In this document: positions 2,811 to 30,121 of the stretch, piece after piece
How the letters are laid out: each line of letters opens with the position of its first letter
How positions within the stretch are numbered: the stretch's first letter is position 1
Virus record (IMG/VR): IMGVR_UViG_3300037109_000068
Span: 1 to 64,000 of that record
Origin: a virus
Length of the DNA stretch: 64,000 nucleotides
Direction: 5' to 3' (one strand)
Translations under genes and position numbers: made by a program
Notes under the pieces: model-generated
Seen by the model: the letters and a program-made list of their open reading frames with translations, nothing else
Told to the model about the DNA's origin: nothing
Databases searched by the model: none

Positions 2811-3028
2811 TCGTAAGTAACCTCCTCATTATTAATATTGTTGTTAGAAGCTGCTTTAGCTGGAGTTTTTGGAGATAAAGCCGTTGTAGTTAAACTCCAT
2901 TCTAAAGCTTTTATTTCTGCGGCTATTTGAATGTTTTTAACTTTTAGAGATTTAATGTTTTCTTTATTATTTGAAAGCATTTCATACTTCTCTTCTATAC
3001 ACTGAATTGTCTCTTGTTCTGTTTTCAT
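2807..3028 (-). CDS. hypothetical coiled-coil protein
   Basis: 73-aa ORF whose stop overlaps the downstream start. Confidence 0.4.
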   Translation of the reverse strand: MKTEQETIQCIEEKYEMLSNNKENIKSLKVKNIQIAAEIKALEWSLTTTALSPKTPAKAASNNNINNEEVTYE

Positions 3029-3040
3029 AATTTTTAATTT

Positions 3041-4516: not shown

Positions 4517-4688
4517 TCTTATTTAGATTTGGATCAATTATAACTAAATAATCTACAGGTACTACAGCAATTATATTATGCTTTATATCAGAAATTATAG
4601 TTCCTGTTGTACCTACACTAAGTTTACAAAATCCTCTTATAAAATATTTTTCACTATTTGAAACAATTGTTATAATTTTTTCTTCCAT
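4506..4688 (-). CDS. hypothetical protein
   Basis: 60-aa ORF overlapping the polymerase start. Confidence 0.3.
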   Translation of the reverse strand: MEEKIITIVSNSEKYFIRGFCKLSVGTTGTIISDIKHNIIAVVPVDYLVIIDPNLNKNDL

Positions 4689-4699
4689 TTTAATAAATT

Positions 4700-5287: not shown

Positions 5288-5298
5288 AATTTTAAGTA

Positions 5299-5589
5299 TT
5301 AATTAGACATATGATAAATTTTTCTTTTATTTGAATTTATCATTATTGGTGTGAAATATTCACATTTAGTCTTAATATTTTTTTCAGTTAATATTTTTGC
5401 AATTGGTAAGTGAGCAGTTCCTTTAAATTCAGTAGCTAAAGAAAGATGACACCAATGCGATTCTACATTTATATAGCATCTTGCACTATGAAAAATACAA
5501 TACTCACACTTTTCTTTACTGTGTTTATATTTCCAGAGTGCTATTTCTTTTCTCTTTTTCAAAACGGTAGCATTTGATTTATTTGCCAT
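5299..5589 (-). CDS. hypothetical Cys/His-rich protein
   Basis: 96-aa ORF with CEYC..H..C..H.C pattern. Overlaps the upstream gene end by 31 nt. Confidence 0.35.
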   Translation of the reverse strand: MANKSNATVLKKRKEIALWKYKHSKEKCEYCIFHSARCYINVESHWCHLSLATEFKGTAHLPIAKILTEKNIKTKCEYFTPIMINSNKRKIYHMSN

Positions 5590-8232: not shown

Positions 8233-8414
8233 GATTCAGGTTCAGTTAATTCTATATTACACATTTTTTTACTAGAATTATTATTAACAATTGATCTTTC
8301 CCAAGCCTTTATTTCTGCTAATGTTGCAGTTTCAGGAAAAAGTTTCTCTTGATAAATATAGTCCCACATATCTTCTGTGACTTGAATAGTCCTTTTAAAT
8401 TTAATTAAAAACAT
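8229..8414 (-). CDS. hypothetical protein
   Basis: 61-aa ORF overlapping its neighbours at both ends. Confidence 0.35.
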   Translation of the reverse strand: MFLIKFKRTIQVTEDMWDYIYQEKLFPETATLAEIKAWERSIVNNNSSKKMCNIELTEPES

Positions 8415-9406
8415 AATTTTTTCATTTTAATTAGTTTATCTAAGATATTATCACTTTTACTGCTTTTTGGAATCATTGCATATGATACTAGAATGTTTAA
8501 ATTTTCTGTTCCCAAGTTATTCTCTTGCATTTTTCTCTGTAGCGTACGAATTGATTTTATTTCATTCGATGCTAAATATAATATAATATTTGAAAATTTT
8601 GCAATAGTTTTCATTAAATAAATAGCATTCCAAGCAGCACGTAATTTAGCGCTAGTCTCAAGTTCAGTCAAAGTGAAATGGTGTTCATCTAGCAATTTTT
8701 CAATTTCTCTTTTATACCCTGGATGTTTTAGAAATGAAGAATTACTTTGAGAAATTTTATCAATATTAAAAAACCCAACAACTTCTGACCCAATATGTTT
8801 CTTTACCCCTGTACCTATTGGAATGCTATTTATATAGCAATTTTCTTTTTTCGATAAATCACTTGGAACAATTGGTAGATCAATTAATCCATATCCTCCA
8901 CCCCTCAATCGCCATGATGATGAGTCTACACTAAACCAGTCATAAGCTAAAGTAAGTTTAAGTGAAGTTACTGCAAATCCATGAAATTTTACTTTTGCTT
9001 TACCTTTAGAGTCAAGTATGTGAGGAACACAAATTTTGTCTAACCATTCTTTCCTCTGCATACTTGTTCTATCATTTGCAGGACTTATTCCAATATATGG
9101 ACCACCTTCTTTTATTAGTTTTTCAATAGCCCATTCTGGATCATCTTGGTGAAATGTATGTAGTAATTTTTCCGTAGGAAGTCCTGCTTTTAGCATCTTT
9201 TGATAATTTGCCCATCCTTCCCAAGCAGCGGTATCAGCTTGAATAGATTGTACCTTTTCATTAGGTTTTCCTGGTATTACGTCCAGTGTTGCAATAGCAT
9301 CAAGGTCTTTTGCATAGCGTTTACAGAATTCAATGTAATTATCAAGGTTTATTCTTTCACCTCGATTCCATACCGAAAATGCTCCTGAATCAAGAAATAT
9401 TCTCAT
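8405..9406 (-). CDS. dpdA: DpdA-like DNA-guanine transglycosylase (TGT superfamily)
   Basis: N-terminus MRIFLDSGAFS typical of phage DpdA. Adjacent to a complete preQ pathway. Confidence 0.7.
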   Translation of the reverse strand: MRIFLDSGAFSVWNRGERINLDNYIEFCKRYAKDLDAIATLDVIPGKPNEKVQSIQADTAAWEGWANYQKMLKAGLPTEKLLHTFHQDDPEWAIEKLIKEGGPYIGISPANDRTSMQRKEWLDKICVPHILDSKGKAKVKFHGFAVTSLKLTLAYDWFSVDSSSWRLRGGGYGLIDLPIVPSDLSKKENCYINSIPIGTGVKKHIGSEVVGFFNIDKISQSNSSFLKHPGYKREIEKLLDEHHFTLTELETSAKLRAAWNAIYLMKTIAKFSNIILYLASNEIKSIRTLQRKMQENNLGTENLNILVSYAMIPKSSKSDNILDKLIKMKKLCF

Positions 9407-9433
9407 TTTTTAATTTTTTAATGTTAAATAAAT

Positions 9434-9536
9434 TGAAGAAAACAGGATTCGAACCTGTGGATGCAAGGGTATTGATACTAGGTTATCACCCTTCCACCTC
9501 TTCCTAGTTAGCATTAAACCACTCTGCCATTTCTTC
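9434..9536 (-). tRNA. tRNA-like gene, long (type II-like), anticodon region non-canonical and unresolved
   Basis: On the minus strand: acceptor GAAGAAA/TTTCTTC, D-arm GCAGAGTGGTTTAATGC, T-arm ACAGGTTCGAATCCTGT. The central 52 nt does not fold as a standard anticodon arm plus variable arm. Confidence 0.5.
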
Positions 9537-9538
9537 AA

Positions 9539-9952
9539 TTATTTCACAGTATATTCTGCTATTATATTGATAAACGTTCCTCCGCGTGGATTGAAATTGC
9601 TTGTTACTTTCATGTAACGTGGTTTACATACAGAAACACAGTCATCTAAAATTATATTTGTAATAGTTTCCATGAAAGAACCAAGATTCCTAAATGCAAG
9701 AAAATAAATCTTTAAACTTTTAGTTTCAATGCATAACTGATCTGGAATATATTCAATTGTAATTGTAGCAAAATCGGGCTGACCTGTTTTAGGACAAAGA
9801 CTAGTAAACTCATTGAAAATAAACTGAGTAACATAATTCCTTTGTGGAAATTTGTTTTGAAATGTTTCTAGCATTTCTGAGGTAGGATTATTATATACAT
9901 ACTTCGTCCCATGGTTTCCTAATTGAGTTAATTTTTTTATATCGTCTTTCAT
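9539..9952 (-). CDS. queF: NADPH-dependent 7-cyano-7-deazaguanine reductase QueF (unimodular type)
   Basis: Catalytic Cys motif SLCPKTGQPDFATI and QueF motif ETKSLKIYF. Confidence 0.9.
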   Translation of the reverse strand: MKDDIKKLTQLGNHGTKYVYNNPTSEMLETFQNKFPQRNYVTQFIFNEFTSLCPKTGQPDFATITIEYIPDQLCIETKSLKIYFLAFRNLGSFMETITNIILDDCVSVCKPRYMKVTSNFNPRGGTFINIIAEYTVK

Positions 9953-10809
9953 AGTTTTATTAATTGGATTAATTCATTTCTTGTATCAGCTTCATTTAAA
10001 AATACTCCTGTAAGACTTGAGGTAGTCATTACAGAATTTTGCTTACTTACACCTCGTTGACACATACATAAATGCTTTGCTTCAATAATGCAAGCAGCAC
10101 CTTTAGGTTGTAAATATTGCATTAAAGCATCAGTTACTTGCTTTCCTATTCGTTCTTGTATCTGTAAACGCTTAGCATATATATCAAGCAGGCGAGCAAG
10201 TTTAGATATTCCGACTATTTTTTTATCGGGAATATACGCAATGTGTGCTTTACCAAAGAAAGAAATCATGTGATGCTCACAAGTTGAGTACATTTCTATA
10301 TTTTTTAGTAAAACCATTTGATCTGTTGTATCATCTTCAAAGCAAGTAAAAATGTCTTTTGGATCTTGATGACACCCTGCAAACATTTCTCCATATGATT
10401 TAATTACACGTTTTGGAGTATCTCTAAGTCCTTCTCTTGTAACATCTTCTCCAATATATTGTAAAATACGTGTAATATTGTCTTGAATATTATCTTCACC
10501 TCCTGGACAAGCTGTTTCCCATGGCATAACTAACCATTTATTGGAATAAAATTGTGTTTCAAATAAAGCATGATAAGTTATATCATCTCCATATTTTTCA
10601 ACGTATGTCCCAAGAGTACATCCTGTAGAAATAACATCATCAAGAATAAAATTAGCATTTTCTGGCTTATGTACAATTTTAGCTTTTTTTAAAAATGCAG
10701 TTAAAATCATTCCACCTTTTGGAATTCCATAAACCGTATATTCTGGACGGTCAATTTTTTCAAGTCTTTCGAAAACTTCTTCCCAGCTTACATAGTATTT
10801 TGCATTCAT
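9949..10809 (-). CDS. folE: GTP cyclohydrolase I (FolE) with an N-terminal Gpt-like phosphoribosyltransferase domain
   Basis: C-terminal ~185 aa: LRDTPKRV, STCEHHM, HLCMCQRGV. N-terminal ~100 aa: KYYVSWEEV, GIPKGG, PRPP loop NFILDDVISTGCTL, VMPWE, as in E. coli Gpt. Confidence 0.85.
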   Translation of the reverse strand: MNAKYYVSWEEVFERLEKIDRPEYTVYGIPKGGMILTAFLKKAKIVHKPENANFILDDVISTGCTLGTYVEKYGDDITYHALFETQFYSNKWLVMPWETACPGGEDNIQDNITRILQYIGEDVTREGLRDTPKRVIKSYGEMFAGCHQDPKDIFTCFEDDTTDQMVLLKNIEMYSTCEHHMISFFGKAHIAYIPDKKIVGISKLARLLDIYAKRLQIQERIGKQVTDALMQYLQPKGAACIIEAKHLCMCQRGVSKQNSVMTTSSLTGVFLNEADTRNELIQLIKL

Positions 10810-11528
10810 AAAGCAAGTGCATTTTTTAAAACAACATCCCAGGTCCCTTCATAACTAACTGGATCAACTAAACCTAATTCATTAAATGAGAGAATTCTCT
10901 CAACACATGATCCACATTTTCCACAAGCAACAATTTGTTCTTTATAACACGTACGAGTCAACAGGTATGGTACTTCAGTAGAATTACTATATCCTATTCT
11001 AAGAATTTCTGCCTTCGAAATGTTCATAAAAGGAACATATAAACCTATTTTTCCGTCTGATGAGTGAGATATTGTTTTTTGTAATGATACTAAAAAATCT
11101 GGCCTACAATCTGGGTAAATATGATGGTCCCCAGCATGTACAGCTAATCCAATTGTATCTGCTCTTATTGATTCAGCAAATCCTGCCATAATAGATGCAA
11201 AGATTAAATTACGCCCTGGTACAACAGTTTTTCGCATATTATGATTATTGTAGTGACCTTCGGGAATTTTTTCACCTTGTGTTAATAAAGCAGAATTAAA
11301 ATATTGGAAAGTATATCGTAGATCAAATGTTGTATGATATACTCCATATCCTGCTTCTCTGTAAAATTGAACAAGATCTACTGCTGATTGCAATTCAAAT
11401 GCATTATGCTTTGATCCATAATAAAATGAACAGCAATGCACTTCATACTCTTGTCTTAATAATGTACCTAATAATGTAGCAGAATCCATTCCACCAGACA
11501 AGCCTATAACTATTTTATTCATATTCAA
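10806..11528 (-). CDS. queC: 7-cyano-7-deazaguanine synthase QueC
   Basis: PP-loop GLSGGMDS. C-terminal Zn site CGKCGSCVER. Confidence 0.9.
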   Translation of the reverse strand: MNMNKIVIGLSGGMDSATLLGTLLRQEYEVHCCSFYYGSKHNAFELQSAVDLVQFYREAGYGVYHTTFDLRYTFQYFNSALLTQGEKIPEGHYNNHNMRKTVVPGRNLIFASIMAGFAESIRADTIGLAVHAGDHHIYPDCRPDFLVSLQKTISHSSDGKIGLYVPFMNISKAEILRIGYSNSTEVPYLLTRTCYKEQIVACGKCGSCVERILSFNELGLVDPVSYEGTWDVVLKNALAL

Positions 11529-11600
11529 TTAGTTAAAAATTAATGATTAAAAAGTAAAAACCCAGATAAAATGAATTACACAATATCTGGGTTTTTTGTT

Positions 11601-12410
11601 TTATTTACCGAATTTATACAGACCATCTGCACTTTGAACAACCAACTTTGGAAATTGATTGTATTTAGGATTTTTGCAGTCCGTTAACAATGTTTGAAAA
11701 CTTGTAGCGGAAGCATCCGGGAATTTCTTTGCAAGCATTTCAATCAATTGAACTTTTGTATATTTTCCTTTTTCAATGAATGGCGAAATGAAAGCAATTC
11801 TTTCTTTGGTAAGTGTTCCTTTACTTCCTGCAGGTGATTTTACTTTAGTTTCAGTTTTTGCCTTTGCTGCAGGTTTTGCTTCTTCAACTACTTTTCTTAC
11901 CGCTTTCTTTGCAGGTTTTTCTTCGGGTACTTCTTCATCATCATCCGGAGCCTCTAACATGTCATCTGTATCCACTACATAATTCAGCATTTCTTCGCGA
12001 AGTTCATCAATGTCTTTTATTTTAAGATCTACGTCTTCGAATTCCGGGTAGGTCTTTGCAATTTCCTTCAATTCCTTCAATGTGGTAGCATCCTGGACAA
12101 ATTTGTAAACATTTACTTCTACTTCTTCTTCAGGCTCGTCTTCAGGTTCAACTTCTTCAACTACTACTTTTTTGATTGCTTTTCCTTTTGCAGGTTTTGC
12201 TACTTCTTTTTTTGCAGGTTCAGCAGTTACTTCGGCAATAATAGCACGAGTAGCATCTGATAATTCATCATCATCTGTAATAAAATCACTTGCTTCTTTT
12301 ATGCCTTGAATTAAGACATCTTCACCACCATCCAAATCAATACCGGTATCAAATCCAGGTAATTCATTAATTTCTGCTGCTGCTTTTTTCAACTGTTTTA
12401 AATTTGCCAT
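11601..12410 (-). CDS. acidic/Lys-rich protein with the conserved C-terminal TDCKNPKYN domain (paralog 1 of 3)
   Basis: The C-terminal ~65 aa align with the C-termini of ORFs 23962-24420 and 25746-26111 (FIEKG..T..LLTDCKNPKYNQFPKLV). AKPAK/EE-rich N-terminal part. Confidence 0.6.
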   Translation of the reverse strand: MANLKQLKKAAAEINELPGFDTGIDLDGGEDVLIQGIKEASDFITDDDELSDATRAIIAEVTAEPAKKEVAKPAKGKAIKKVVVEEVEPEDEPEEEVEVNVYKFVQDATTLKELKEIAKTYPEFEDVDLKIKDIDELREEMLNYVVDTDDMLEAPDDDEEVPEEKPAKKAVRKVVEEAKPAAKAKTETKVKSPAGSKGTLTKERIAFISPFIEKGKYTKVQLIEMLAKKFPDASATSFQTLLTDCKNPKYNQFPKLVVQSADGLYKFGK

Positions 12411-12597
12411 ACGTTTTAAAATTTTAAATTAATAATATTAAATTAAGTTCACTGTCAAAGCCAGGTTGCATTAAGCAGAGCCTGGCTTCTTCAAACAAAA
12501 CAACTAACTAATTAACCAACTTTTAAACCAATTACCATGAAAAACAAATATAACAATTATTTTTTAGCATTAAAATTTATTTTCAAAAAAGAATAAA

Positions 12598-12816
12598 TTA
12601 TTTACGAAGTTTTTCCAAATCCTCAATAGACATCTCTCTTAATTGACCATCTTGCTTTTCGGCAATTAAAGCATCAATTTTTTGATTATGTGCCTTATTA
12701 TCGGCAGCATTTCGTAATTCTTCATTTTCTTTCTTATTGGTGAGGTAGACATCTTTAAGAATATCAAATCTTAATTGATTTTCAACATCTACAGTGCTAC
12801 TACCCACTGCGAACAC
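12598..12816 (-). CDS. hypothetical coiled-coil protein
   Basis: 72-aa ORF between queE and the paralog gene. Confidence 0.35.
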   Translation of the reverse strand: MFAVGSSTVDVENQLRFDILKDVYLTNKKENEELRNAADNKAHNQKIDALIAEKQDGQLREMSIEDLEKLRK

Positions 12817-12842
12817 CCAAGTTGCAAGAGCATTTCTAACTA

Positions 12843-13463
12843 TTATTTAAACCCTGCAAATTTATGCATTTGAATTGAAAGTTTCCAACCTGGATTATTC
12901 TTTACAAATTCAACCGCACCTTTAATATTTTCCGTACTTTCCTTTGTATATGGATTCATAAAAATTATTGGAGAGATATAATATTCATCTGCACCTGAAA
13001 TGCTTCGTATATTTGGAAGATTAAGATTTTTGCTATCAAAAGGAAATCTAAATTCTCCACAAAATCCATCTTTAAAATCAGAATGCAATTGATCTAAATC
13101 TTTTGGAGAACAAGAAATATAATCAAATTGAAATGGTAAACTTATTGTGCCATTTGTCTCCAATAATTGAGCATAATTATCTTCAAAAAATTCACAAATT
13201 TCCTCAGTTAATTGTAAAAGAGGTTCTCCGCCTGTCCAAATGATATTCAAACATTTATATTTACTAATTTCATCCAAAATTTCCTCTACTGTCATTTCTT
13301 TATAAGCTACCCATTCAGTGTCACAGAAATCACAAGATAAATTGCATCCAGCAAGTCGAATAAATATAGCAGGCATTCCAGTATTAAATCCTTCTCCCTG
13401 TATGGAAAAAAAGATCTCATTTACTTTAAGCTTCATAACGTGCAGAAGTTTTATCGGTTTCAC
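12843..13463 (-). CDS. queE: 7-carboxy-7-deazaguanine synthase QueE (radical SAM)
   Basis: CNLSCDFCDT (CxxxCxxC) and GGEPLL motif. Confidence 0.85.
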   Translation of the reverse strand: MKPIKLLHVMKLKVNEIFFSIQGEGFNTGMPAIFIRLAGCNLSCDFCDTEWVAYKEMTVEEILDEISKYKCLNIIWTGGEPLLQLTEEICEFFEDNYAQLLETNGTISLPFQFDYISCSPKDLDQLHSDFKDGFCGEFRFPFDSKNLNLPNIRSISGADEYYISPIIFMNPYTKESTENIKGAVEFVKNNPGWKLSIQMHKFAGFK

Positions 13464-13821
13464 TAACTGTTACAGCATTTATTTTTATACCATCTCGATA
13501 TAGATCTGGTAGAAGTTCTTTGCATTTAATAAAGATTACACGTGCCATGTTTTCGGCAGTAGGATTACATAAAGATTCATTTGTAATGAAATATTGACCA
13601 TCATTTAAATCTTTATGGTCAAAAGTTTCATCAATCCATTTTTTAATAGGTTCAAGTCGTCTGTAATCAAAAACCATTCCAACACTATCTAAAATGTTTG
13701 AAACTAATTCTACGGTCACTTTATAATTATGACCATGAAACGTTGAACAAGGGTGATCCTCAGGCAATCTCCGAAGATGATGCCCTGCACTGAAATGAAA
13801 TTCTTTACTAATGGTATACAT
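13426..13821 (-). CDS. queD: 6-carboxy-5,6,7,8-tetrahydropterin synthase QueD
   Basis: FSAGHHL, CSTFHGHNYKV, and ETxxT-like end SETDKTSARYE. Confidence 0.9.
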   Translation of the reverse strand: MYTISKEFHFSAGHHLRRLPEDHPCSTFHGHNYKVTVELVSNILDSVGMVFDYRRLEPIKKWIDETFDHKDLNDGQYFITNESLCNPTAENMARVIFIKCKELLPDLYRDGIKINAVTVSETDKTSARYEA

Positions 13822-18886: not shown

Positions 18887-19282
18887 TTAATTGGTTATAT
18901 AATATGCATTTTTTAATAAATAATCAATATTTACTTTCTTGTCAATAATTCGTCTACTTTTTAATGACAATATTTCTAGACGATTTACTACAATAAGAGA
19001 TTCTTTGCCTGCAGGAAGTACAAAATGTCGTTTGCCACCTGCTACTTTGTTTACTTTGGTTAATTTTGACCTCTTATCCGCATAACGTTTGGCTAATGAA
19101 AAGTGAGCCCAACCGGTAAATACACGAATATTAGAACGGTCAGTCACGTAAATTACCCAAACATTTGTAATCCAAATTAACAAATTACCAACCCAACCAT
19201 TATATATCTTTTTCCAATATGGAAAAATTAACTTTTTTACTTTGGCCAATAACTGTTTCCATAATTTTTTGAATTCTTTCAT
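18887..19282 (-). CDS. hypothetical protein with one hydrophobic segment
   Basis: 131-aa ORF. WVGNLLIWITNVWVIYV is a putative TM segment. Confidence 0.4.
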   Translation of the reverse strand: MKEFKKLWKQLLAKVKKLIFPYWKKIYNGWVGNLLIWITNVWVIYVTDRSNIRVFTGWAHFSLAKRYADKRSKLTKVNKVAGGKRHFVLPAGKESLIVVNRLEILSLKSRRIIDKKVNIDYLLKNAYYITN

Positions 19283-19299
19283 GATTAATTGTTTTTAGT

Positions 19300-20892
19300 T
19301 TATAAATATTCCTGCATTAATTCTATTAATAAAGATTCATTTTCAGTTTCTATTCCATCTGTAATAGCATCAACTATCTTTCTTTTTGCATCAAGCAATT
19401 CTGCTATTTTTTCCTCGATGGTATTTATTGCAATTGCATAATAGATATTTACTCCTCTTAATTGACCAATCCTATGAATTCTATCTTCCATTTGATCCAT
19501 CTTTTTTGGACTCCAACCTAATTCTACTACAAGCATATTACTTGCTGCTGTTAAGGTAATACCAACTCCTCCAGCCATCAAATTTACAATAAATAATTTA
19601 GTATTCAAATCATTTTGAAAGGAATCAATCGCTTCCTGTCTTTTTGTCCCAGTTACTGAACCATCAAGTTTTACTGCTATTTTTGGAAATGATTCGATCA
19701 ATTGATTTATTACAAAGGTATGTGTGGTGACAATTACTAGTTTTCCTTCAGTTTCAAGATAATCCTCAACCCATTTAACGACTCCATTTAATTTACCTTG
19801 AACTGCAAATTGTTTTAATCCTTCTGTTCTTGCTTTTGCATTTAGGAAAGCTTTTGAATCAATTAAATGACCATTGACTAAATTTGCTTTTACAAATGAT
19901 TTGTAATCTGCTTCTGCTTTTGAATATTCTTTTCTATTTTCTAATTCAATTGGAACAATCGTTCTTATTTTTGCAGGTAATTCCGGCAAGACATCTTTTT
20001 TAAGCCTGCGCAGCATTATTGGAATAAGTTTTTTATGTAATTCCTCTGTCTTCATTGATCCTTTAAAATTCCAACCATACCTATCTTTTTTAGGATCACA
20101 ATATTTCCATATAAAATCCCATTGGTCAGGGAATATCGTTGGATCAACAAAGTTTATAGTATTAAATAATTCATATGGATGGTTTTCTACAGGTGTTCCT
20201 GTTAAAGCAAGTCGATGTGGTACATTTTTTTTAAGTTTCCTTATTGCAGACATTCGTTTTGTTGAACTATTTTTTATGAAATGAGCCTCATCAAGTATCA
20301 TTATTTTAAATTCTTGTTTGAGTAATTCCTTTGTCCAATATGTCAATATATCATAATTGATTATAATAACATTCCCTATTATTTTTGAAGGTTTTTCCCC
20401 ATTTAAAATTTGAATATGTGGAACAGGATTCATCCAGTTTTTAATTTCTCTTGCCCAATTTATTTTTACTGATGAAGGTTCTATAATAAGAGCAGGACGG
20501 ATTTCTGGATGCAATTGTAAATAAGCAATTGCCTCAATAGTTTTTCCTAAACCTTGTTCATCTGCGATTAAACAACAACCATTATGTTGCTCGATAAATT
20601 GCACACCAATATTTTGAAATGATCGAAGTGTGCCTTTTAAACCGGGAACTGTATATTTTTCATCAATATTATTTAAAAGGAATGTTTCAAGTCGCTTATC
20701 AATGATAAAATTCCAATCCATTACTTTTTTCAAATTTTCCTTAGTAAGAGGTGTAGACCAACAATCAATACTACTATGATAATTTCTAATAGTAAGTGTT
20801 TTCATATTGGCAATATCCTTCTTATTAGAAGGAAACTTCATTTTGATTAATTTCCTCCCATTAGCGTCTTTTGCAAGTGTGGCAGTTTTCAT
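19300..20892 (-). CDS. SNF2-family helicase/ATPase
   Basis: Motif I ADEQGLGKT, motif II ILDEAH, motif VI QMEDRIHRIGQ. Confidence 0.9.
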   Translation of the reverse strand: MKTATLAKDANGRKLIKMKFPSNKKDIANMKTLTIRNYHSSIDCWSTPLTKENLKKVMDWNFIIDKRLETFLLNNIDEKYTVPGLKGTLRSFQNIGVQFIEQHNGCCLIADEQGLGKTIEAIAYLQLHPEIRPALIIEPSSVKINWAREIKNWMNPVPHIQILNGEKPSKIIGNVIIINYDILTYWTKELLKQEFKIMILDEAHFIKNSSTKRMSAIRKLKKNVPHRLALTGTPVENHPYELFNTINFVDPTIFPDQWDFIWKYCDPKKDRYGWNFKGSMKTEELHKKLIPIMLRRLKKDVLPELPAKIRTIVPIELENRKEYSKAEADYKSFVKANLVNGHLIDSKAFLNAKARTEGLKQFAVQGKLNGVVKWVEDYLETEGKLVIVTTHTFVINQLIESFPKIAVKLDGSVTGTKRQEAIDSFQNDLNTKLFIVNLMAGGVGITLTAASNMLVVELGWSPKKMDQMEDRIHRIGQLRGVNIYYAIAINTIEEKIAELLDAKRKIVDAITDGIETENESLLIELMQEYL

Positions 20893-20911
20893 TTGAGATA
20901 AAATTTAATTT

Positions 20912-21073
20912 TTAGTAAATTGTTCTGATACATTCACTAATTGTTTTCACTGTGAGATAATGGCTTGCTGCATATTCAAAATGCTTTGCAACCATAATGT
21001 TTACATCTTTTATATTGTTACCGTCAGCAATTAACTTTGCAATTACTTTGTTTTTTAATTCTTGTTTTGTCAT
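20912..21073 (-). CDS. small hypothetical protein (53 aa, below the ORF-track cutoff)
   Basis: ATG at 21073 overlaps the upstream stop (ATGA). MTKQELKNKVIAKLIADGNN... fills an otherwise empty gap. Confidence 0.4.
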   Translation of the reverse strand: MTKQELKNKVIAKLIADGNNIKDVNIMVAKHFEYAASHYLTVKTISECIRTIY

Positions 21074-21393
21074 TCTATTTTCCTCCTTACTACTTTTCTT
21101 GTTTTAATCTTTTCCATTATTAATTGATATTTTTCTGTATATCTAGGATTTTTACGTCTTAGAATAGTATAGAACATCTCATTTTCTTTTATGAGAAATG
21201 GCCGGTCTCTTAACGACACATCAGTAGGAAACAATGATAATACTAATTCCTCAGATAATGTGTTAACTTTTCCGTTGAAATACTCGAGGAAAGACACATG
21301 TTCATTTTCAAAAAGTGCATTTATCTCACACTTTTTAAATGTATCTTTCCAAACATAATCTTTGTTAGGTGTCGCTTTTACTAGATATTTCAT
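21070..21393 (-). CDS. hypothetical protein
   Basis: 107-aa ORF overlapping the upstream gene stop. Confidence 0.45.
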   Translation of the reverse strand: MKYLVKATPNKDYVWKDTFKKCEINALFENEHVSFLEYFNGKVNTLSEELVLSLFPTDVSLRDRPFLIKENEMFYTILRRKNPRYTEKYQLIMEKIKTRKVVRRKIE

Positions 21394-22109
21394 TCAATAC
21401 TCCTATATTGGTTTACTTTTTTAATGAATGTAAAGTACTGTTGAGCATAGTTATTATCTTCATGCGTTTCCTTTACTTGCTTTTCGAACTGAATGAGGTT
21501 ACCTCGAAAACATCCACAGACAACTTGTATATCATTATCACTTGTCCAATAGACAGTGGTTTGTGCATTTCTTGATTCAATTTTTGGTGAAACCAAACGT
21601 TGTGGATTTTCCTTATAGTCTCTGCAATATGTACAACCTGTGCAATCTCTGCAACCTGTACAACCTCTGCAATCTCTGCAATATGTACAATCTATGCAAC
21701 CTGTGCAACCTGTGCAATCTCTGCAATATGTACAATCTATGCAATCTATGCAATCTCTGCAACCTGTACAACCTCTGCAATCTATGCAATCTATGCAATC
21801 TCTGCAATCTCTGCAATATGTACAATCTATGCAACCTGTGCAATCTCTGCAATATGTACAATCTATGCAATCTATGCAATCTCTGCAATCTATGCAATCT
21901 CTGCAACCTGTACAACCTCTGCAATCTATGCAATCTATGCAATCTCTGCAACCTGTACAACCTCTGCAATCTCTGCAATATGTACAATCTATGCAATATG
22001 TACAATTAATTAACGTTAGACTTTTCTGCGTTGCAGAGTCTTCTGTTTCGTAATATGCATTCCACTTATTGCCTTTTTCATCAATAAAAAATTCATTTTC
22101 TTTTTTCAT
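21390..22109 (-). CDS. Cys-x-x triplet-repeat protein (43 consecutive CXX units) with a globular C-terminal domain
   Basis: Residues 36-164 consist only of CTY/CID/CRD/CRG/CTG triplets. Flanked by non-repetitive N- and C-terminal sequence and in an operon with its neighbours. Confidence 0.75.
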   Translation of the reverse strand: MKKENEFFIDEKGNKWNAYYETEDSATQKSLTLINCTYCIDCTYCRDCRGCTGCRDCIDCIDCRGCTGCRDCIDCRDCIDCIDCTYCRDCTGCIDCTYCRDCRDCIDCIDCRGCTGCRDCIDCIDCTYCRDCTGCTGCIDCTYCRDCRGCTGCRDCTGCTYCRDYKENPQRLVSPKIESRNAQTTVYWTSDNDIQVVCGCFRGNLIQFEKQVKETHEDNNYAQQYFTFIKKVNQYRSIE

Positions 22110-22312
22110 GATTTTTCAATTTTAGTTAGTAAACCTTTTTTCAATTTTCTTTGCAATATGCACTCATGCAAAGTATGGTGTAACTCATCATCTACGATGG
22201 TTTGCTCAGCTTTCTTTTTTGGAGTGATAAAATGCATCTTATTCCTTTTTAGGAATTTTGCAAGTTGTCTGCCTGTTAATCCTTCTGGTAAATGTAATTC
22301 AATTTTTTTCAT
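22106..22312 (-). CDS. hypothetical basic protein
   Basis: 68-aa ORF overlapping the downstream start. Confidence 0.4.
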   Translation of the reverse strand: MKKIELHLPEGLTGRQLAKFLKRNKMHFITPKKKAEQTIVDDELHHTLHECILQRKLKKGLLTKIEKS

Positions 22313-22316
22313 CTTT

Positions 22317-23219
22317 TTAGTTATTAATGGTTACATATTGCATTTTTGGAGTCTGTTCATCTGTATATTTTTTAAGAACATCAAATCCTGAGTTCATCAT
22401 TTCCATACCACCTGTCAACATTAAGTAATCCATTTTTTTAATAATGTCTTTTGGTGCAGTAATATGATTTGTATAACGTGTAATACCATTGAATAATGCC
22501 CAAATCGTTTTTCCTTGCTCATCAATAGATGTTTGCAAGGAATCTGAAAAATCTACAATTTTGTTTTTCTTTTGCGTAGAAATTTTACTTGTATCATCAT
22601 TTATATCAACTTTAAAGATTTTATTTAAAACTCTTTCTATTGCTTCATCTCGAATTGGAAGATCTGCCATCTGTTTGAATTTAACCATCAATAAATCATC
22701 TTTTGAGATTGTTTTTCTTAATTCTTCCTTTGCGACTTCAATCCTTTCTTTCATGGTTTTTGTATGTCTGAATTTTTGTACTTCACCGTAGGCTTGAAAG
22801 AATGTATTTTGACAAACCACGGTGGTATTAGCACTTCCAAATCCTACACTAATTGAGCCATCATGTGCATTTAAACACGTTACCCAACGTTTAATTTCTG
22901 AATTACCGATTATTTCCTTTGGCAATTCAGCTTGCAAATAAACCTTTTTACCAAATTTTAATTGACCGCCTTGTGTTAATTCAATATCTAATCCTTCAAT
23001 AGCATTGAGAAGGATCATTGCAAGTTCACTGTTTTGGAGAGGAACATAATTTTGACCTACGGTACCTAACCAAAAATTGTCACGTTTAAATATACCAAAG
23101 GATTCGGTAGGTAATACTAAACCATCATTATTTAACGCAGTTAATGGTTTCTTTTCTGCCGACCAATTTAGATCTGTTTTTTCAAGCAAATCAAAACATC
23201 TTTCTTCAATTGTATTCAT
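22317..23219 (-). CDS. DUF932-family (phage/plasmid-like) protein
   Basis: YVPLQNSE, LNAHDGS and VVCQNTF motifs. Start moved to MNTIEER, because the longer ORF runs into a tRNA-like element. Confidence 0.65.
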   Translation of the reverse strand: MNTIEERCFDLLEKTDLNWSAEKKPLTALNNDGLVLPTESFGIFKRDNFWLGTVGQNYVPLQNSELAMILLNAIEGLDIELTQGGQLKFGKKVYLQAELPKEIIGNSEIKRWVTCLNAHDGSISVGFGSANTTVVCQNTFFQAYGEVQKFRHTKTMKERIEVAKEELRKTISKDDLLMVKFKQMADLPIRDEAIERVLNKIFKVDINDDTSKISTQKKNKIVDFSDSLQTSIDEQGKTIWALFNGITRYTNHITAPKDIIKKMDYLMLTGGMEMMNSGFDVLKKYTDEQTPKMQYVTINN

Positions 23220-23246
23220 AGTTTTTAAATTAAGTGAATAAATTAG

Positions 23247-23314
23247 GGAATCTGGATGGATTCGAACCAACTACTGATGCGCCAGTTCCATGTCCTTATC
23301 TCTAAGGCAGACTC
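23247..23314 (-). other. degenerate tRNA-like element (T-arm and acceptor present, no canonical anticodon arm)
   Basis: Minus strand: GAGTCTG...GTTGGTTCGAATCCATC CAGATTC C. The D-region forms CCTTA-GAGA-TAAGG. Only ACTG/CAGT with a 6-nt loop is found where the anticodon arm should be. Confidence 0.3.
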
Positions 23315-23323
23315 CAAGTATTT

Positions 23324-23704
23324 TTACAATTCGATTAATTTAGTTGAACAATCAAAGTGAATAGTTACACCGCTATATGTAGAATAGTGGCCTTTGTCTT
23401 TTGATTCAGTGTATCCTACTTTTATTACATGAGGAAGCTTTTTAATTTTTTCCTTTTGTGTTGGAGTAATTCCATTATATCCAAGTTTCATTCTAATAAC
23501 TCCATTTTTTCGATTGTCAATAAAACAAAAACCAGCTTCACTTCCAAGAATTTGTTCAATCCTTTGTCTGATAGGACTTTTTTTGGATTCATTTTCTGTA
23601 GATGTAGAAAATTCAGGAAACAAATGATCTAATGCTTTTTCTGCTTCTGGAAAAACATTATATGTATACATTAATTCATTTCTTGTACAAATATATTTTT
23701 TCAT
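23324..23704 (-). CDS. hypothetical protein
   Basis: 126-aa ORF with its start 33 nt downstream of hairpin copy 1. Confidence 0.5.
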   Translation of the reverse strand: MKKYICTRNELMYTYNVFPEAEKALDHLFPEFSTSTENESKKSPIRQRIEQILGSEAGFCFIDNRKNGVIRMKLGYNGITPTQKEKIKKLPHVIKVGYTESKDKGHYSTYSGVTIHFDCSTKLIEL

Positions 23705-23736
23705 ATCATTAAAGTTTAATTGTTTTTACTACGAAA

Positions 23737-23762
23737 ACCACGTAACCTCTCGACTACGTGGT
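23737..23762 (-). repeat. conserved GNRA-capped hairpin, copy 1 (terminator-like)
   Basis: Minus strand ACCACGTA-G-TC-GAGA-GG-T-TACGTGGT followed by TTTC. Confidence 0.7.
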
Positions 23763-23912
23763 AATAATATTATATGTTTTAATAGTTTGTAGGGCAGATT
23801 TTACTCACGTGGTAAAACAACAAGATACCAATAACCACTTAGCCCACATAATACACCATCCTTTCTTTTTGTAAGTAACTCCTTATTAAAGTTAACCATT
23901 TTTACCAACAAA

Positions 23913-23938
23913 ACCACATAACCTTTCGATTATGTGGT
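23913..23938 (-). repeat. conserved GNRA-capped hairpin, copy 2
   Basis: Minus strand ACCACATA-A-TC-GAAA-GG-T-TATGTGGT followed by TTTG. Stem G:C changed to A:T on both arms. Confidence 0.7.
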
Positions 23939-23961
23939 AAAATACGGGTAAAAATCGGTAT

Positions 23962-24420
23962 TTACTTTGCAAACTGATATATTCCTTTCTCGGTCACTTT
24001 TACCAGTTTTTCAAATTTATTGTATTTCGGGTTTTTACAATCTGTAAGCACCGTGGAAAGTGTTGAATCAGAAAGATGAGGAAGATTTTCTTTGCCAATT
24101 TCCATTAATTCCTTTTTTGTTTTGTTTCCTTTTTCAATAAATGGAGTCAAAACAGATACTAATGAAGGACCTTTTTCCTTTTTCACTGCGGATTGTTTTT
24201 CGGTTTTTTCCTTTTTCTCTTTGATAAATTTACCAACACTTTCGAAATCTTCAACTTTTAAAATTTCGATTTCTTCTTCTTCGTTTGCTTCAAATTCTGG
24301 ATCAATGTAAACGGTTGACACCTTTTTGATAGGTTTCTTTTCTTCTACATCGTCTTTTACCGGTTTCTGATTAGGTTTTACTACAACCTTGGCATTTGTT
24401 TTTCTTGCAATTGTTTTCAT
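23962..24420 (-). CDS. Lys/Glu-rich protein with the C-terminal TDCKNPKYN domain (paralog 2 of 3)
   Basis: C-terminus LTPFIEKGNKTKKEL...VLTDCKNPKYNKFEKLV aligns with 11601-12410 and 25746-26111. Confidence 0.6.
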   Translation of the reverse strand: MKTIARKTNAKVVVKPNQKPVKDDVEEKKPIKKVSTVYIDPEFEANEEEEIEILKVEDFESVGKFIKEKKEKTEKQSAVKKEKGPSLVSVLTPFIEKGNKTKKELMEIGKENLPHLSDSTLSTVLTDCKNPKYNKFEKLVKVTEKGIYQFAK

Positions 24421-26352: not shown

Positions 26353-27924
26353 GATTGAAAAGTTTTAAGTTAAATTAATAATTGATTGATTAAAAGTTTG
26401 AACATGTATTCCGATTCGACCGTATTTGCAACAAATAAAATATTGTCCAAAAAATACATGTTGTAAAAAAACATGAAAAAATTTATCACCACATTATTAT
26501 TTTGTTTCGTGGATTTTATTCGATTTTACATGTTGACCGGAAATCGAAAAAACGTTCGAGGTCTACGTCCTCTGCGTTGGTTGATATTTCGGAGTGATCA
26601 ACATCCGTTTTTCTATTCAGTAACGTTTTAGCACGGTTGAGAGATATCAGCAAACATCGTTTGCATTTTGTTAACGTGTAATACAATTCAATACTTAAAT
26701 ATCGGTATAATTAATTAATCGTCCAAATAAAAATACATCATAATTCATATATAGAATTTACCATACCTAAATAAACCATCAAAAGCAATCATTAATTAAA
26801 CGATATTAAAATAAATTCATATGTATTATATATAAAACAGCATAAAATATACGTGTAGTAATGCATGTATATGGCAATGGGATAATTATATGGAATGCAT
26901 AAAATATATATAACAGTACACATATGCATACACCACACTATATGACTACGTATCATTATACTACATACATATACCATACTATTAATCTAATATAATCATA
27001 TATAATAAAACAATCATAAAGTATACACAATACAATCAATATGCATATATAACATATGCATTGTACCATGCATGTATACACATATACACAACATAACATA
27101 TGTATGGTATAACATATAGCATACATAATATATACATATTAATAACATCATGTATATATCATTAATTATATATGTATTGATCATTACATATATGTATGGA
27201 TTAATCATGTGTATTGTATATAACATGCATTGTAATATGATAAAAAAAATTTGTGTGGAGGTGATTGATCGGTCGATTAAAAACATGTATACATGATTGT
27301 ACCATGCAATATATAATACATTGATAATCAATCATCATTTTGTCACATAAATTGTATTATGTTAAATAGGAATCAGTGCAGAATGATTAACATATTAATG
27401 ATCAACGAGATAGCGAAAACACGTTTGGCGCCTTGAGGTCAAAAAACGTGTCAGAGATACCCCCTCTATTAGATAGTATTTTTTTTGAATAATTAACCTT
27501 TCAGTAGTATAATTGAAATACTAAACACTTACTAACACAATAGTAAAATAGACAATGAATAGAATAATGGTAAATAATATAAAAAAGGAATTATGCATAT
27601 ATGTATTGTATATATACGTTATATTAGTTGTTTATAGTATACTTTTTAATTACTTTTTTAATACTTATGTATAAAGGCTGTTTATAGAATATAGTTTAAT
27701 ATAAAATTAATACGATTTCACCATTATACTAGAATATTAGAGGTAAAAAAAATTTATAAAAAAATTTTCTAGAATTTTGAATTGATTTTTTCGGTTCAAG
27801 AAGTAGTACGAATAATCTTTTATTACTGTGAATAGTATAGATTATTTGAAGTTAGGGAAAATATAAAAAGAGAAACTATTTAAGTAATTATAATAATTTT
27901 ATTGAGATAAAATTATTATAGGCT
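26353..27924. other. non-coding divergent control hub between the minus-strand early arm and the plus-strand late arm (promoters, possibly ori/pac)
   Basis: No credible ORF in 1.57 kb. The flanking genes diverge from it. Confidence 0.7.
26815..27335. repeat. low-complexity alternating purine/pyrimidine tract rich in ATGCAT/CATATG/GTATAC/ACATGT words
   Basis: For example, 27067-27090 is a perfect 24-nt Y-R alternation. ATGCAT recurs at least 7 times. Confidence 0.7.
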
Positions 27925-28602
27925 ATGGCAAGAAGACGTAAAAAAGACAAAACACCTGTACATAGAAATGTGATTACTAACACTCCAATAGTTAGTAGTG
28001 AAATGGCAGACCAAGAGAATACTAAAATTCTTGAAAAAATTGCCAATGGAACATACGCAAAGCCAGACACCCTTAAAAAACATGGAAACATTGAACCAAA
28101 GTTTAAGAATGATTTTATGCGCCAGGTATATTATCTAGCAAAGTTAGGAGCTAGGGATTGTGACATTGCACAATTTTTTGGGGTAGATATTACATGTATA
28201 GACCATTGGAAAACCAAAAACCTTGATTTTATGGAGGCCTTAAAAGAAGGCAAGTGGATGTTTGGATTTCGTGTTAGTGAAACATTAGGCAATCGGGCAC
28301 TAGGATATGATTATACAGAGGTGGAACATAGTCAACACGTAGATAGGTTTGGAGAAATTCGAAACTTAACGAAAGTTACACATAAACATATGGCGCCTGA
28401 CGTAACGGCAATTATATTCTTTTTGAAAAATAGGCATCGGGATTTATGGGCAGACGTTAACAAGACTGAAGTAGACGCAAGGTATCAAGTAGAACTATCC
28501 AAAAAGATGGATTTAACTATTCTTACAGAAGCAGAACAGAAAATGGTAAAAAGTATTGCTATAAAAAATATAAGTACAATCCATGGGGTCTCAGGTAATT
28601 GA
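27925..28602 (+). CDS. terS: terminase small subunit
   Basis: First late gene and overlaps the TerL start. HTH-like LGARDCDIAQFFGVDITCIDHW. Confidence 0.65.
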   Translation: MARRRKKDKTPVHRNVITNTPIVSSEMADQENTKILEKIANGTYAKPDTLKKHGNIEPKFKNDFMRQVYYLAKLGARDCDIAQFFGVDITCIDHWKTKNLDFMEALKEGKWMFGFRVSETLGNRALGYDYTEVEHSQHVDRFGEIRNLTKVTHKHMAPDVTAIIFFLKNRHRDLWADVNKTEVDARYQVELSKKMDLTILTEAEQKMVKSIAIKNISTIHGVSGN

Positions 28603-30121
28603 TAGAACATACGTAAAGAAGAAAGATACGAAAGAGGAAACTCTACAAAAGGTACTAGACAATCCTTTTGCAGTATTACTTTCTATGGGTGGACTATCAT
28701 TATATGAATTTATCCAGGTATTTTGGAATGAAATAGTCGAGGATGAATTTAAAACGAATTGGCATATTGAATATTTATGTAAGGAATTAGAGGAAATTGC
28801 AACACGTGTAGGAAACCACGAAAAGAAATTATACGATTTAATTATTAATATTCCACCAGGGACTACAAAAACTATTGTTTGCTCGATTATGTTTCCAGTG
28901 TGGTGTTGGACAAAATGGCCCTGGATGCGTTTTATTACAGGAAGCTATTCATCTGATTTATCTCTTGAAAGTGCTGAAAAAAGTCGAGACATTATGCGCT
29001 CCGACAAATTTGCTTTACTCTATCCAAATATCTTCATCAAAGAGGACAAGAATACTAAATCGAATTATCGTATTGCTATACGCGAATTAGATGAGGTTGG
29101 AAATAGACAACGAGTTGTATTTGGAGGAGGTCGGTTTTCAACTTCGGTAGGTGGAACCATTACAGGATTCCACGGACATATTAATATATGGGATGATCCA
29201 ATTAATCCAAAGCAAGCCGTCTCAGAGCCTATGTTAAATACGGCAAACAATTGGGTAGATCAGTCTGCAAGTACTCGTAAGGCTGATAAAGAAGTTTCAG
29301 TAACAATTATGGTAATGCAGCGTCTTCACCAAAAAGATCCAACAGGACATTTATTAGATAAGAAAGATAAAGTAATTCGACATATTTGCCTACCAGGTGA
29401 GATTCGAAATTATAAAGAACAATTAAATCCACCTGAATTAGCAAAATTTTATGTAGATGAATTACTTGACCCAATTCGCTTAAGTTGGAAATCACTAAAG
29501 GAAATGGAAGCGGATTTAGGCATATATGGATATGCAGGTCAAGTTGGGCAGCATCCAACACCACCCGGTGGAGGTATGTTTAAAGTGGGAAATTTTCAAA
29601 TTATAGATACTTTGCCTCATGAAATTAATTGGAATGCAAGAATGCGTTACTGGGATAAGGCTGGTACGGAAGGTGCAGGAAAGAGAACAGCAGGAGTAAA
29701 GATGATTAGACTCACAAATAATAAAGTAATTATTGTCGATGTTCGGAAAGGCCAATGGGCTGCAGAAAAGCGGGAACAAATTATAAAAGCAACGGCACAA
29801 GCAGATACAAGAGCATTTGAAATTGCAATAGAGCAAGAACCCGGATCTGGAGGAAAAGAATCAGCAGAAGCCACAACAAGAAATTTAGCAGGATTTGTAA
29901 TAAAAAAGGATTTGCCACATGGTGATAAAGTATATCGTGCAGAGCCTCTTGCAGTACAAGTAAATGAAGGCAATGTAATGCTTTTACGAGGTGAATGGAA
30001 TCATGACTTTATCGAAGAATTTCGGTTTTTTCCATTTGGAAATTTCAAAGATCAAGTAGATGCTACGTCAGCAGGATTTAATTTAATAATGCAACGAAGA
30101 ACAGCAAGGAGAATTACATAA
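28583..30121 (+). CDS. terL: terminase large subunit
   Basis: Walker A-like IPPGTTKT, Walker B HINIWDDP. Nuclease Asp motifs YWDKAG and DQVDATSAG. Confidence 0.9.
   Translation: MGSQVIDRTYVKKKDTKEETLQKVLDNPFAVLLSMGGLSLYEFIQVFWNEIVEDEFKTNWHIEYLCKELEEIATRVGNHEKKLYDLIINIPPGTTKTIVCSIMFPVWCWTKWPWMRFITGSYSSDLSLESAEKSRDIMRSDKFALLYPNIFIKEDKNTKSNYRIAIRELDEVGNRQRVVFGGGRFSTSVGGTITGFHGHINIWDDPINPKQAVSEPMLNTANNWVDQSASTRKADKEVSVTIMVMQRLHQKDPTGHLLDKKDKVIRHICLPGEIRNYKEQLNPPELAKFYVDELLDPIRLSWKSLKEMEADLGIYGYAGQVGQHPTPPGGGMFKVGNFQIIDTLPHEINWNARMRYWDKAGTEGAGKRTAGVKMIRLTNNKVIIVDVRKGQWAAEKREQIIKATAQADTRAFEIAIEQEPGSGGKESAEATTRNLAGFVIKKDLPHGDKVYRAEPLAVQVNEGNVMLLRGEWNHDFIEEFRFFPFGNFKDQVDATSAGFNLIMQRRTARRIT

Follow-up and report, generated by a model that had tools for sequence, protein, structure and literature searches.

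What kind of protein is encoded by a gene in which a cysteine occupies every third position for 129 residues? The question is raised by a gene of a virus genome deposited in IMG/VR (record IMGVR_UViG_3300037109_000068), of which positions 1 to 64,000 were analysed; this whole 64,000-nucleotide stretch is called the window. The gene, named here the CXX gene, lies on the minus strand and encodes an N-terminal cap, an array of Cys-x1-x2 triplets (CXX) and a C-terminal domain that we call GCFxG. Our comparisons indicate that it is an extreme new member of an existing, uncharacterised and largely unannotated phage family. With a probability of roughly 0.5, we favour the reading that its product is a three-part early or accessory phage protein in which the array would form a narrow, cysteine-cored β-solenoid acting as a length-variable scaffold or spacer.

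The CXX gene and its cysteine array

Residues 36-164 of the protein consist of 43 C-x-x triplets in unbroken succession, drawn from five types (CID 12, CRD 12, CTG 8, CTY 7 and CRG 4) and no others. A first-pass annotation, made from the letters of the window alone, had reported this array and its two flanking domains; our triplet count and typing agree with it, and the C-terminal sequence that it quoted proved exact. At the DNA level, the five triplet types are encoded by just seven distinct 9-mers, and Tandem Repeats Finder described the region as a tandem repeat with periods of 9, 18, 27 and 45. Because of the 9-bp periodicity, four extra open reading frames (ORFs) extend across the array (Table 1), as had also been noticed at first sight. 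The gene shares an ATGA overlap with the ORF on each side, and its layout is therefore compatible with translational coupling to both neighbours.

The same locus was found in JGI contig L008 (JGI 3300037356, 2,019 bp), which was assembled independently and aligns without gaps to window positions 21102-23120. The two sequences differ by 2 single-nucleotide polymorphisms (SNPs), both in the upstream gene, and the encoded CXX proteins are identical, so that an assembly artefact is an unlikely source of the array. In the public annotation of L008, the CXX gene is split: only its last 68 amino acids are retained (P0144), together with a spurious 137-residue antisense ORF inside the repeat. As a consequence of this split, an exact-sequence look-up of the window protein in the public protein collection gave no match.

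Table 1. Coordinates of the CXX gene, its parts and other features of the window
Feature	Position	Strand	Basis or remark
CXX-array protein, complete coding sequence	21390..22109	-	239 aa plus stop, ATG start; ORF listing
N-terminal cap domain, aa 1-35, MKKENEFFIDEKGNKWN..SATQKSLTLIN	22005..22109	-	family conservation, AlphaFold2
Cys-x-x array, 43 triplets, aa 36-164	21618..22004	-	9-bp minisatellite
C-terminal GCFxG domain, aa 165-239, YKENPQR..IESR..TTVYW..VVCGCFRGNL..FEKQV..TH..Y..	21393..21617	-	PHROG matches, profile, AlphaFold2
Spurious ORF across repeat	21542-22009	+	ORF listing
Spurious ORF across repeat	21600-22013	+	ORF listing
Spurious ORF across repeat	21613-22005	-	ORF listing
Spurious ORF across repeat	21640-22053	+	ORF listing
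ATGA overlap, 4 nt, stop of upstream 68-aa ORF / start of CXX gene	22106..22109	-	
ATGA overlap, 4 nt, stop of CXX gene / start of downstream 107-aa ORF	21390..21393	-	
Upstream 68-aa ORF, syntenic neighbour	22106..22312	-	56% identity to same-position ORF in L136
Downstream 107-aa ORF, syntenic neighbour	21070..21393	-	66% identity to L136 counterpart
SNF2-family helicase	19300..20892	-	PHROG 62, 3.8e-110
DUF932 protein, upstream of gene block	22317..23270	-	Pfam PF06067, 5.8e-30; PHROG 1221
DpdA/TGT-like transglycosylase	8405-9406	-	7-deazaguanine (preQ0-type) DNA-modification set, spanning 8405-13821
GTP cyclohydrolase fragment	9539-9952	-	7-deazaguanine set
FolE	9949-10809	-	7-deazaguanine set
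QueC	10806-11528	-	7-deazaguanine set
QueE-like radical SAM protein	12843-13463	-	7-deazaguanine set
QueD	13426-13821	-	7-deazaguanine set
Terminase	28583-30121	+	structural arm
HK97-like capsid	38942-40072	+	structural arm

Sequence comparison places the window protein in a large phage family

The first-pass annotation had been unable to assign the protein to a family, a statement that no longer holds. The array matched PHROG 15341 (E=4.7e-33, 115.8 bits, aa 69-169) and the C-terminus matched PHROG 20532 and PHROG 7964, all three without a functional assignment, and members exist in cultured phages. Pfam and NCBIfam hold no family model for the protein, the sole Pfam match being Gemini_V2 (E=0.24). 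A homologue search returned 205 matches covering the full length. When the family profile was run exhaustively over 1.84 billion cluster representatives, 4,179 were recovered at E<=1e-3, 881 at E<=1e-10 and 91 at E<=1e-30; a profile of the GCFxG domain gave 685 matches.

The relatives share one architecture, namely a 35-residue N-cap, an in-register (C-x1-x2)n array and a 75-residue C-domain. The consensus of the N-domain is MKxxNGYWxDxNNNxW....E.A...S.TL..C, with columns N13, W15, A25 and L32 invariant or nearly so and the first Cys placed directly after the cap. That of the C-domain is xKxNPQR...IGSR..QTT.YW...QVVCGCFRG.L.EFE..V..TH.....Y, in which the G, C, G and Y columns are invariant; the window domain holds every family motif, but its IGSR reads IESR. 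Within the arrays, the Cys columns are invariant or almost so while x1 and x2 vary, x1 being mostly R (570), S (568), T (478) or I (284) and x2 mostly D (961), G (452), N (439) or Y (325). Between the first Cys and the NPQR motif, 99 of 102 relatives stay in the triplet register, 89 of these 99 with a perfect array; in the window protein, 43 out of 43 triplets are in register. These data indicate that the window protein belongs to a real, selected and large phage family.

Cultured-phage members are CPt10_1641 of Campylobacter phage CPt10 with its homologues in CP220, CP21 and IBB35, NVP1238B_69 of Vibrio phage 1.238.A/B and an ORF of Flavobacterium phage FL-1. Like the window protein, they start with an N-terminal cap followed by an unbroken C-x-x array with the same x1 and x2 preferences, and like the window gene their genes are placed in early or replication regions, in many cases with a helicase next to them. 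Unlike it, they lack the GCFxG domain: in the CPt10 protein, little sequence follows the array, a second cap type is found in the Vibrio and FL-1 proteins, and FL-1 carries another domain, HCRAGW. Their annotation reads 'insect antifreeze protein' or 'hypothetical'. In FL-1 (L131 2342-3158; KY421186.2 ~26455-27271), the GenBank 'APIAPV' repeat protein APZ82901.1 is annotated in the wrong frame. The real ORF of 234 amino acids has 36 CXX triplets behind the type-2 cap, enters the HCRAGW domain and then shifts frame into the next annotated ORF (2934-3158), the frameshift being either a sequencing error or the mark of a pseudogene. The family appears to be under-represented in protein databases because its periodic DNA opens other frames and misleads gene callers. 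No study of the family emerged from a literature search on repeats with a cysteine at each third position, YdcK solenoids, phage 'antifreeze' proteins and the functions of phage pentapeptide-repeat proteins; heterocycloanthracin was the sole related concept to come up.

A separate Cys-triplet family was observed in Mycobacterium genomes (L057, L085 and L101), where short ORFs carry a 12-triplet Cys array (..CxGCxxCxxC..) and a conserved tail, SGLRxAVGxRDVH[AV]; in L085 and L101, GS(A/I)ATxxSAAV repeats precede the array.

Array length varies between and within related phages

Repeat-number variation among related phages, which had been proposed at the outset as something to look for, was found. 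Among family proteins with the GCFxG domain, arrays range from 2 triplets (P0149) to the 43 of the window protein, the longest observed in this group, with nearly every integer between represented; versions with 2-5 triplets retain both end domains. A longer array, with 46 unbroken triplets up to the stop codon, is encoded by a capped gene without C-domain at L133 4454-5005 (IMGVR_UViG_3300000116_000345). L133 carries two CXX genes in tandem (3944-4393 and 4454-5005), both with a third N-cap type (MTTYKTLEEVQKDYPNLD...) and without a C-terminal domain.

A closer view was provided by L136, a syntenic relative of the window phage (amino acid identities of 73% for SNF2, 76% for primase, 77% for DnaB and 79% for DnaC). 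The order of the slot is the same in both phages (68-aa ORF, CXX gene, 107-aa ORF, SNF2), and the L136 orthologue in that slot has 25 triplets with a composition differing from that of the window array. L136 additionally has two CXX paralogues of 7 and 33 triplets, the three loci lying at 462-1013, 3121-3525 and 5001-5627. The lengths of this orthologue and its paralogues indicate that array length changes quickly both between and within related phages, as would fit slippage of 9-bp units. The first 55 residues of the 7-triplet copy are identical to those of the 25-triplet copy, suggesting either that a duplication with contraction took place recently or that there was cross-talk in the assembly.

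The C-terminal domains are shared with other phage solenoids

The GCFxG domain also occurs without cysteine arrays. It follows YdcK-type hexapeptide repeats (PF18836) in Bacteroides phage BF766P1 (gp32), Clostridium phage Amboise (WAK79366) and Ruminococcus phage phiRM10 (gp34), pentapeptide repeats (PF00805) in the metagenomic protein P0232, and further solenoids from Listeria, Bacillus and other phages in the viral fold library. In BF766P1, Amboise, phiRM10 and P0232, the C-domain is 42-48% identical to that of the window protein over about 50 residues, and the proteins are of similar size and come from early-region contexts. They differ from the window protein in their GNARVSGDAxVS hexapeptide or pentapeptide repeats, in their N-caps and in having no Cys array.

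A second, unrelated C-domain, HCRAGW (..W.TC.TTHCRAGW..LAG..), follows CXX arrays in P0096, P0097, P0113, L134 and Flavobacterium phage FL-1, and pentapeptide repeats in 19 Ralstonia phage records (e.g. RSK1 ORF34). Since both C-domains are found behind both kinds of array, CXX arrays appear to replace known rod-forming β-solenoids in two independent architectures. The array combines more widely as well: the N-cap precedes CXX arrays with other C-termini in CPt10_1641 and P0095, the array is joined to a PC4 single-stranded DNA-binding domain in P0095 and to Ig-like He_PIG domains in P0112 (Pfam), and no C-domain is present in CPt10_1641 and L133. Giant metagenomic proteins built of many cap plus CXX-array modules, whose origin may be eukaryotic or in giant viruses, were also seen (P0279, 1,426 amino acids; P0350, 975; P0315, 836; P0333, 795; P0325, 548), and non-repeat segments resembling the He_PIG-bearing segment of P0112 seem to be interspersed between the arrays of P0279 and P0333.

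Structure prediction suggests a regular, narrow β-solenoid

In the AlphaFold2 model of the window protein, the N-cap is a three-strand sheet plus a helix (predicted local distance difference test, pLDDT, about 80-94) and the C-domain comprises four strands and two helices (pLDDT 84-96). The array reached a pLDDT of 55-70 where the alignment was deep and <50 where it was gapped. The homologue P0007, with 19 triplets, was modelled with a mean pLDDT of 85 and 68-88 in the array. In both models, DSSP placed a β-bridge ('E') at exactly every third residue, which is x1. Together with the residue preferences, this predicted ladder fits a polygonal solenoid with one triplet per side, in which β-formers occupy x1, the α-L or turn formers D, G and N occupy x2 and Cys takes the third position, presumably facing inward.

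Structural comparison pointed the same way. For the P0007 model, the top list of a Foldseek search against the PDB consisted almost wholly of left-handed β-helix proteins (LpxD, LpxA, GlmU), and in BFVD the window model aligned at length with phage pentapeptide-repeat proteins. When the family profile was compared with PDB sequences, the best match was the antifreeze β-helix TmAFP of Tenebrio molitor (1EZG, E=0.008, bias score 43.5). The alignment covers 63 residues, ungapped and in register, with the Cys columns falling on every third TmAFP residue, alternately C and S/A; we take these to be the core-facing positions of its 12-residue coil. By Foldseek, TmAFP ranked tenth for the window model (E=4.5). 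The remaining PDB profile matches were weak (E 0.09-3) and mostly to Zn-binding CXXC-type zinc fingers.

The established elements are the family, its architecture, the conserved register, the variable length, the domain swaps and the prediction of a regular fold. As for the rest, we infer a coil geometry, a cysteine core, a spacer role and a cellular target as follows. Each Cys-x1-x2 triplet would make one side of a coil in a very narrow β-solenoid rod, the Cys side chain pointing inward, x1 (R/S/T/I) forming the β-bridge between coils and x2 (D/G/N/Y) turning the corner. With a 12-residue coil as in TmAFP, 43 triplets would give ~11 coils and a rod of roughly 5 nm. The 35-residue N-domain would cap one end. 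The rod would provide a scaffold or a binding surface of variable length, altered freely by 9-bp slippage; in function, it could be exchanged for a pentapeptide or hexapeptide solenoid. It would carry the GCFxG α/β domain as the likely interaction, effector or dimerisation part. Early in infection, the probable target of the protein would be a factor of DNA metabolism, from either the host or the phage.

Several observations weigh against this reading. No convincing signal with a period above 3 residues was found in the family by autocorrelation of triplet, x1 and x2 at lags of 1-10 triplets (highest z = 3.3, at lag 3 triplets), and triplet counts showed no preference modulo 3, 4, 5 or 6 once a redundant cluster was discounted by eye; with modulo 2-6 examined, an apparent excess at 24 came from this single cluster (17 of 99 sequences at one count). 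Foldseek gave no significant PDB match (best E 0.07, poor template modelling (TM) scores), which for the whole window model is attributable to dilution by the low-confidence stretch 115-157, and no relative with a known function was detected for the GCFxG domain, its sequence and profile searches of the PDB giving matches at chance level only. Perfect repeats are known to be turned into solenoids too readily by AlphaFold2, and the coil size, handedness and inward orientation of the cysteines are our proposal rather than features read from the model coordinates. We know of no solved precedent for an all-cysteine solenoid core, which would probably need metal or disulfides, and the gene is known here from its sequence alone.

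The same conservation pattern can also be read for what it selects. Invariant cysteines, variable x1 and x2, free length and the missing higher period indicate selection for a Cys at every third residue, with a turn-former before it and a β-former after it, rather than for one array length or a higher-order unit.

The interpretation given in the first-pass annotation is thus supported in part. Its idea of a solenoid agrees with the predicted period-3 bridge ladder and with the β-solenoids that head the Foldseek lists, and its analogy with pentapeptide-repeat proteins is borne out, as far as the rod is concerned, by the fusion of both C-domains to pentapeptide or hexapeptide solenoids elsewhere. 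The likeness to collagen that it proposed extends to the triplet number only: a collagen triple helix was rejected, as Cys rather than Gly occupies each third residue and the array contains no Pro. Two other solenoid repeats were likewise rejected as descriptions of the window array, namely the pentapeptide repeat PF00805 (no Pfam match; period 3, not 5) and the hexapeptide or YdcK solenoid (PF00132, PF18836; [LIV]-G-x-x-[STAV]-x or GDAxVS; no Pfam match).

Alternative explanations for the array

The alternative that survives best is a metal-thiolate rod, in which a row of metal ions (Zn, Cu(I), Fe or Fe-S) is bound by the cysteine stack and the protein serves as a store, sponge or wire. The solenoid scaffold would accommodate this reading, the only differences being the filling of the core and the purpose of the protein. 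Cysteine makes up 33% of the array and its CxxC spacing is invariant; metallothioneins and CXXC zinc fingers share a very high Cys content and CxxC spacing, and zinc fingers of this type make up most of the weak PDB matches other than TmAFP. Moreover, a cytoplasmic setting disfavours disulfides, and the C-x-x spacing resembles the CxxCxxC portion found in motifs of ferredoxins. Against it, no metallothionein, Fer4 or zinc-finger model of Pfam matched, even at E<=10, and the retention of both end domains in versions with 2-5 triplets suggests that the array is not the sole functional part. Metallothioneins and CXXC fingers are also, unlike the window protein, small domains that mix C-C, C-x-C and C-x-x-C spacings and have no unlimited period-3 array. 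Judged as a metallothionein, the window protein has only the C-x-x-C spacing, 7 Tyr in the array, a length of 239 residues and two domains that are not Cys-rich; as a 4Fe-4S ferredoxin (CxxCxxCxxxCP), it has no Fer4 match in Pfam, no Pro in the array and no x3 spacing. Both assignments were rejected, and we consider the metal-thiolate rod possible but doubtful.

A bolder form of this idea is that the arrays are a new class of β-solenoid whose stacked-Cys core ligates a continuous line of metal or Fe-S, a 'wire' with a length (2-46 triplets) set by 9-bp slippage, used by phages as a module in place of pentapeptide and hexapeptide solenoids. This we regard as rather improbable.

Similarly, it is rather unlikely that the rod imitates double-stranded DNA, as pentapeptide-repeat proteins do, and binds gyrase, topoisomerases, restriction enzymes or other DNA-binding host proteins. 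This view gains from the CXX arrays that stand in for pentapeptide repeats before the same C-domains, from the replication-region context and from the fusion of the relative P0095 to the PC4 domain. Pentapeptide-repeat proteins (Qnr, MfpA, AlbG; PF00805) are likewise rod-like repeat scaffolds; they differ from the window protein in their five-residue A(D/N)LXX sides, their 20 residues per coil and their hydrophobic Leu/Phe core. The charges, however, weaken the nucleic-acid mimicry that had been suggested for the window protein. Arrays are mildly acidic, averaging only -0.11 charges per triplet with 17% net positive, and whole proteins average -0.8, about neutral; the window array carries only -8 over 129 residues, with no periodic acidic pattern, and a 12-residue coil would be far thinner than DNA.

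Much less probable is a precursor of a ribosomally synthesised and post-translationally modified peptide of the heterocycloanthracin, or thiazole/oxazole-modified microcin (TOMM), type, in which a cyclodehydratase and a dehydrogenase would form thiazoles from the Cys-Xaa-Xaa units. In heterocycloanthracin precursors, such units recur and vary by tripeptide indels, and the genes often escape gene callers; the precursors described are 50-90 amino acids long with a C-terminal low-complexity core, and the TIGRFAMs model TIGR03601 was built by Haft for the family (Haft 2009, PMC2674419). Tripeptide indels and gene-caller misses are both seen in the CXX family. Unlike the window protein, these precursors consist of a small leader and a core with ~13 Cys, are Gly-rich and need maturation genes. 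The window protein has 239 residues, a conserved and confidently folded 75-residue domain after the array, and R/T/I/D/Y at its x positions rather than a Gly-rich composition. A scan of ~40 window ORFs revealed neither a YcaO/cyclodehydratase nor a SagB-type dehydrogenase nor a scaffold gene, and NCBIfam, which we take to include TIGR03601, gave 0 families at E<=10 for the window protein. A small ORF of Paenibacillus chitinolyticus (L009 7745-7846), ending in CFNCFRCFNCFNCSSC...CHSCHRGGK, resembles a heterocycloanthracin/TOMM-type precursor and not a relative of the phage family.

Equally far-fetched, in our view, is an artefact, either a minisatellite collapsed or expanded during assembly or a non-coding repeat that is open by chance. 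It is suggested by the 9-bp minisatellite with its seven unit types and several open frames, and by a scan of genome contigs with the pattern TGY-N6 x12, in which many bacterial simple repeats read C-x-x in some frame. Most of the scan matches were junk repeats (CLP, CPR and CSS runs) in arbitrary frames, with a few genuine relatives (L036, L052), and the scan pointed to no host. The junk repeats were, however, monotonous and without flanking domains, whereas the window frame links two conserved domains present in hundreds of homologues with heterogeneous arrays. The identical array in the independent contig L008, which differs by 2 SNPs elsewhere, and the L136 syntenic orthologue of the same architecture argue against it as well.

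Finally, a true insect-antifreeze homologue, that is, an ice-binding protein, is barely credible: the annotation of the Vibrio phage 1.238.A/B relatives, the PF02420 matches recorded for CPt10_1641 (annotation) and P0095 (precomputed) and the TmAFP match would speak for it, but the last of these is very strongly biased in composition, a scan of the window protein with the current PF02420 model was negative up to E<=10, the array has no Thr-Cys-Thr ladder (x2 being only D, G or Y), a unit of 3 rather than 12 residues and no period-4-triplet signal, and the gene is a cytoplasmic early phage gene with relatives in gut and faecal phages. TmAFP itself (PDB 1EZG/1L1I) is a secreted, disulfide-bonded β-helix with 12 residues per coil; its TCTxSxxCxxAx unit has a Cys at each sixth residue and a Thr-Cys-Thr ice-binding face, whereas the window array would have Cys at all core positions.

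Genome context of the CXX gene

The window phage has ~31% GC and two divergent arms, a structural plus arm and a minus arm for replication, with PolA, a uracil-DNA glycosylase (UDG)-exonuclease fusion, a clamp-like processivity factor, DnaB, DnaC, primase and the SNF2 helicase. The minus arm also holds a complete 7-deazaguanine gene set (Table 1). The terminase is nearest, at ~38% identity, to those of phages of Flavobacteriaceae (Croceibacter, Cellulophaga, Riemerella), and a near-identity DNA search of window positions 19000-24000 against cultured phages gave no match.

The CXX gene sits between the DUF932 gene and the SNF2 helicase gene, and its two small neighbours had no match in Pfam, PHROG or PADLOC; the PADLOC defence-system models did not match the CXX protein either. 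A helicase adjoins the CXX gene, or lies within two small genes of it, in the window, L005/L006, L136 and CPt10 (L129), and is of the SNF2 type or, in CPt10, a P-loop helicase. This association across four otherwise different phage contexts is suggestive only, as no helicase lies near the CXX gene in L004, L007, L135, L137 and L138. Other contexts contain ERF and DnaB (L135), RecT, RusA, a methylase and SSB (L007) or AntA/ANT (L004). CXX genes are thus located consistently in early, replication or recombination regions. As in the 7-deazaguanine set of the window, a radical-SAM gene is present in CPt10, two genes away from its CXX gene; any connection between CXX proteins and deazaguanine phages is speculative.

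Two further observations concern the window phage itself. Its family-A DNA polymerase is split on the minus strand into ORFs 5559-6803 and 3041-4516: one ORF fuses a uracil-DNA-glycosylase-superfamily domain to a 3'-5' exonuclease, and the polymerase domain lies in a separate ORF ~1 kb downstream, with a 195-residue ORF in between. At 40.1-48.7 kb, several ORFs of similar size follow one another; an all-against-all comparison revealed no paralogy among them.

Significance of the CXX family

If the predicted fold holds, the CXX array would be a minimal β-solenoid in which each side needs one core, one bridge and one turn residue, and its all-cysteine core, absent from solved structures, would make it a new variant of the β-solenoid theme. 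It would also be a third repeat type, beside pentapeptide and hexapeptide repeats, among interchangeable phage rod modules, whose shared C-terminal domains occur widely in phages that infect bacteria of the gut, the soil and the sea. The 4,179 representatives of the family are absent from Pfam and NCBIfam, and much of the family is hidden by mis-annotation. One phage with arrays of 7, 25 and 33 triplets and a relative with 43 make up a natural length series, through which the importance of rod length and the ligands of the cysteines become accessible to experiment, and a genetically tunable cysteine or metal ladder may be of interest to protein designers.

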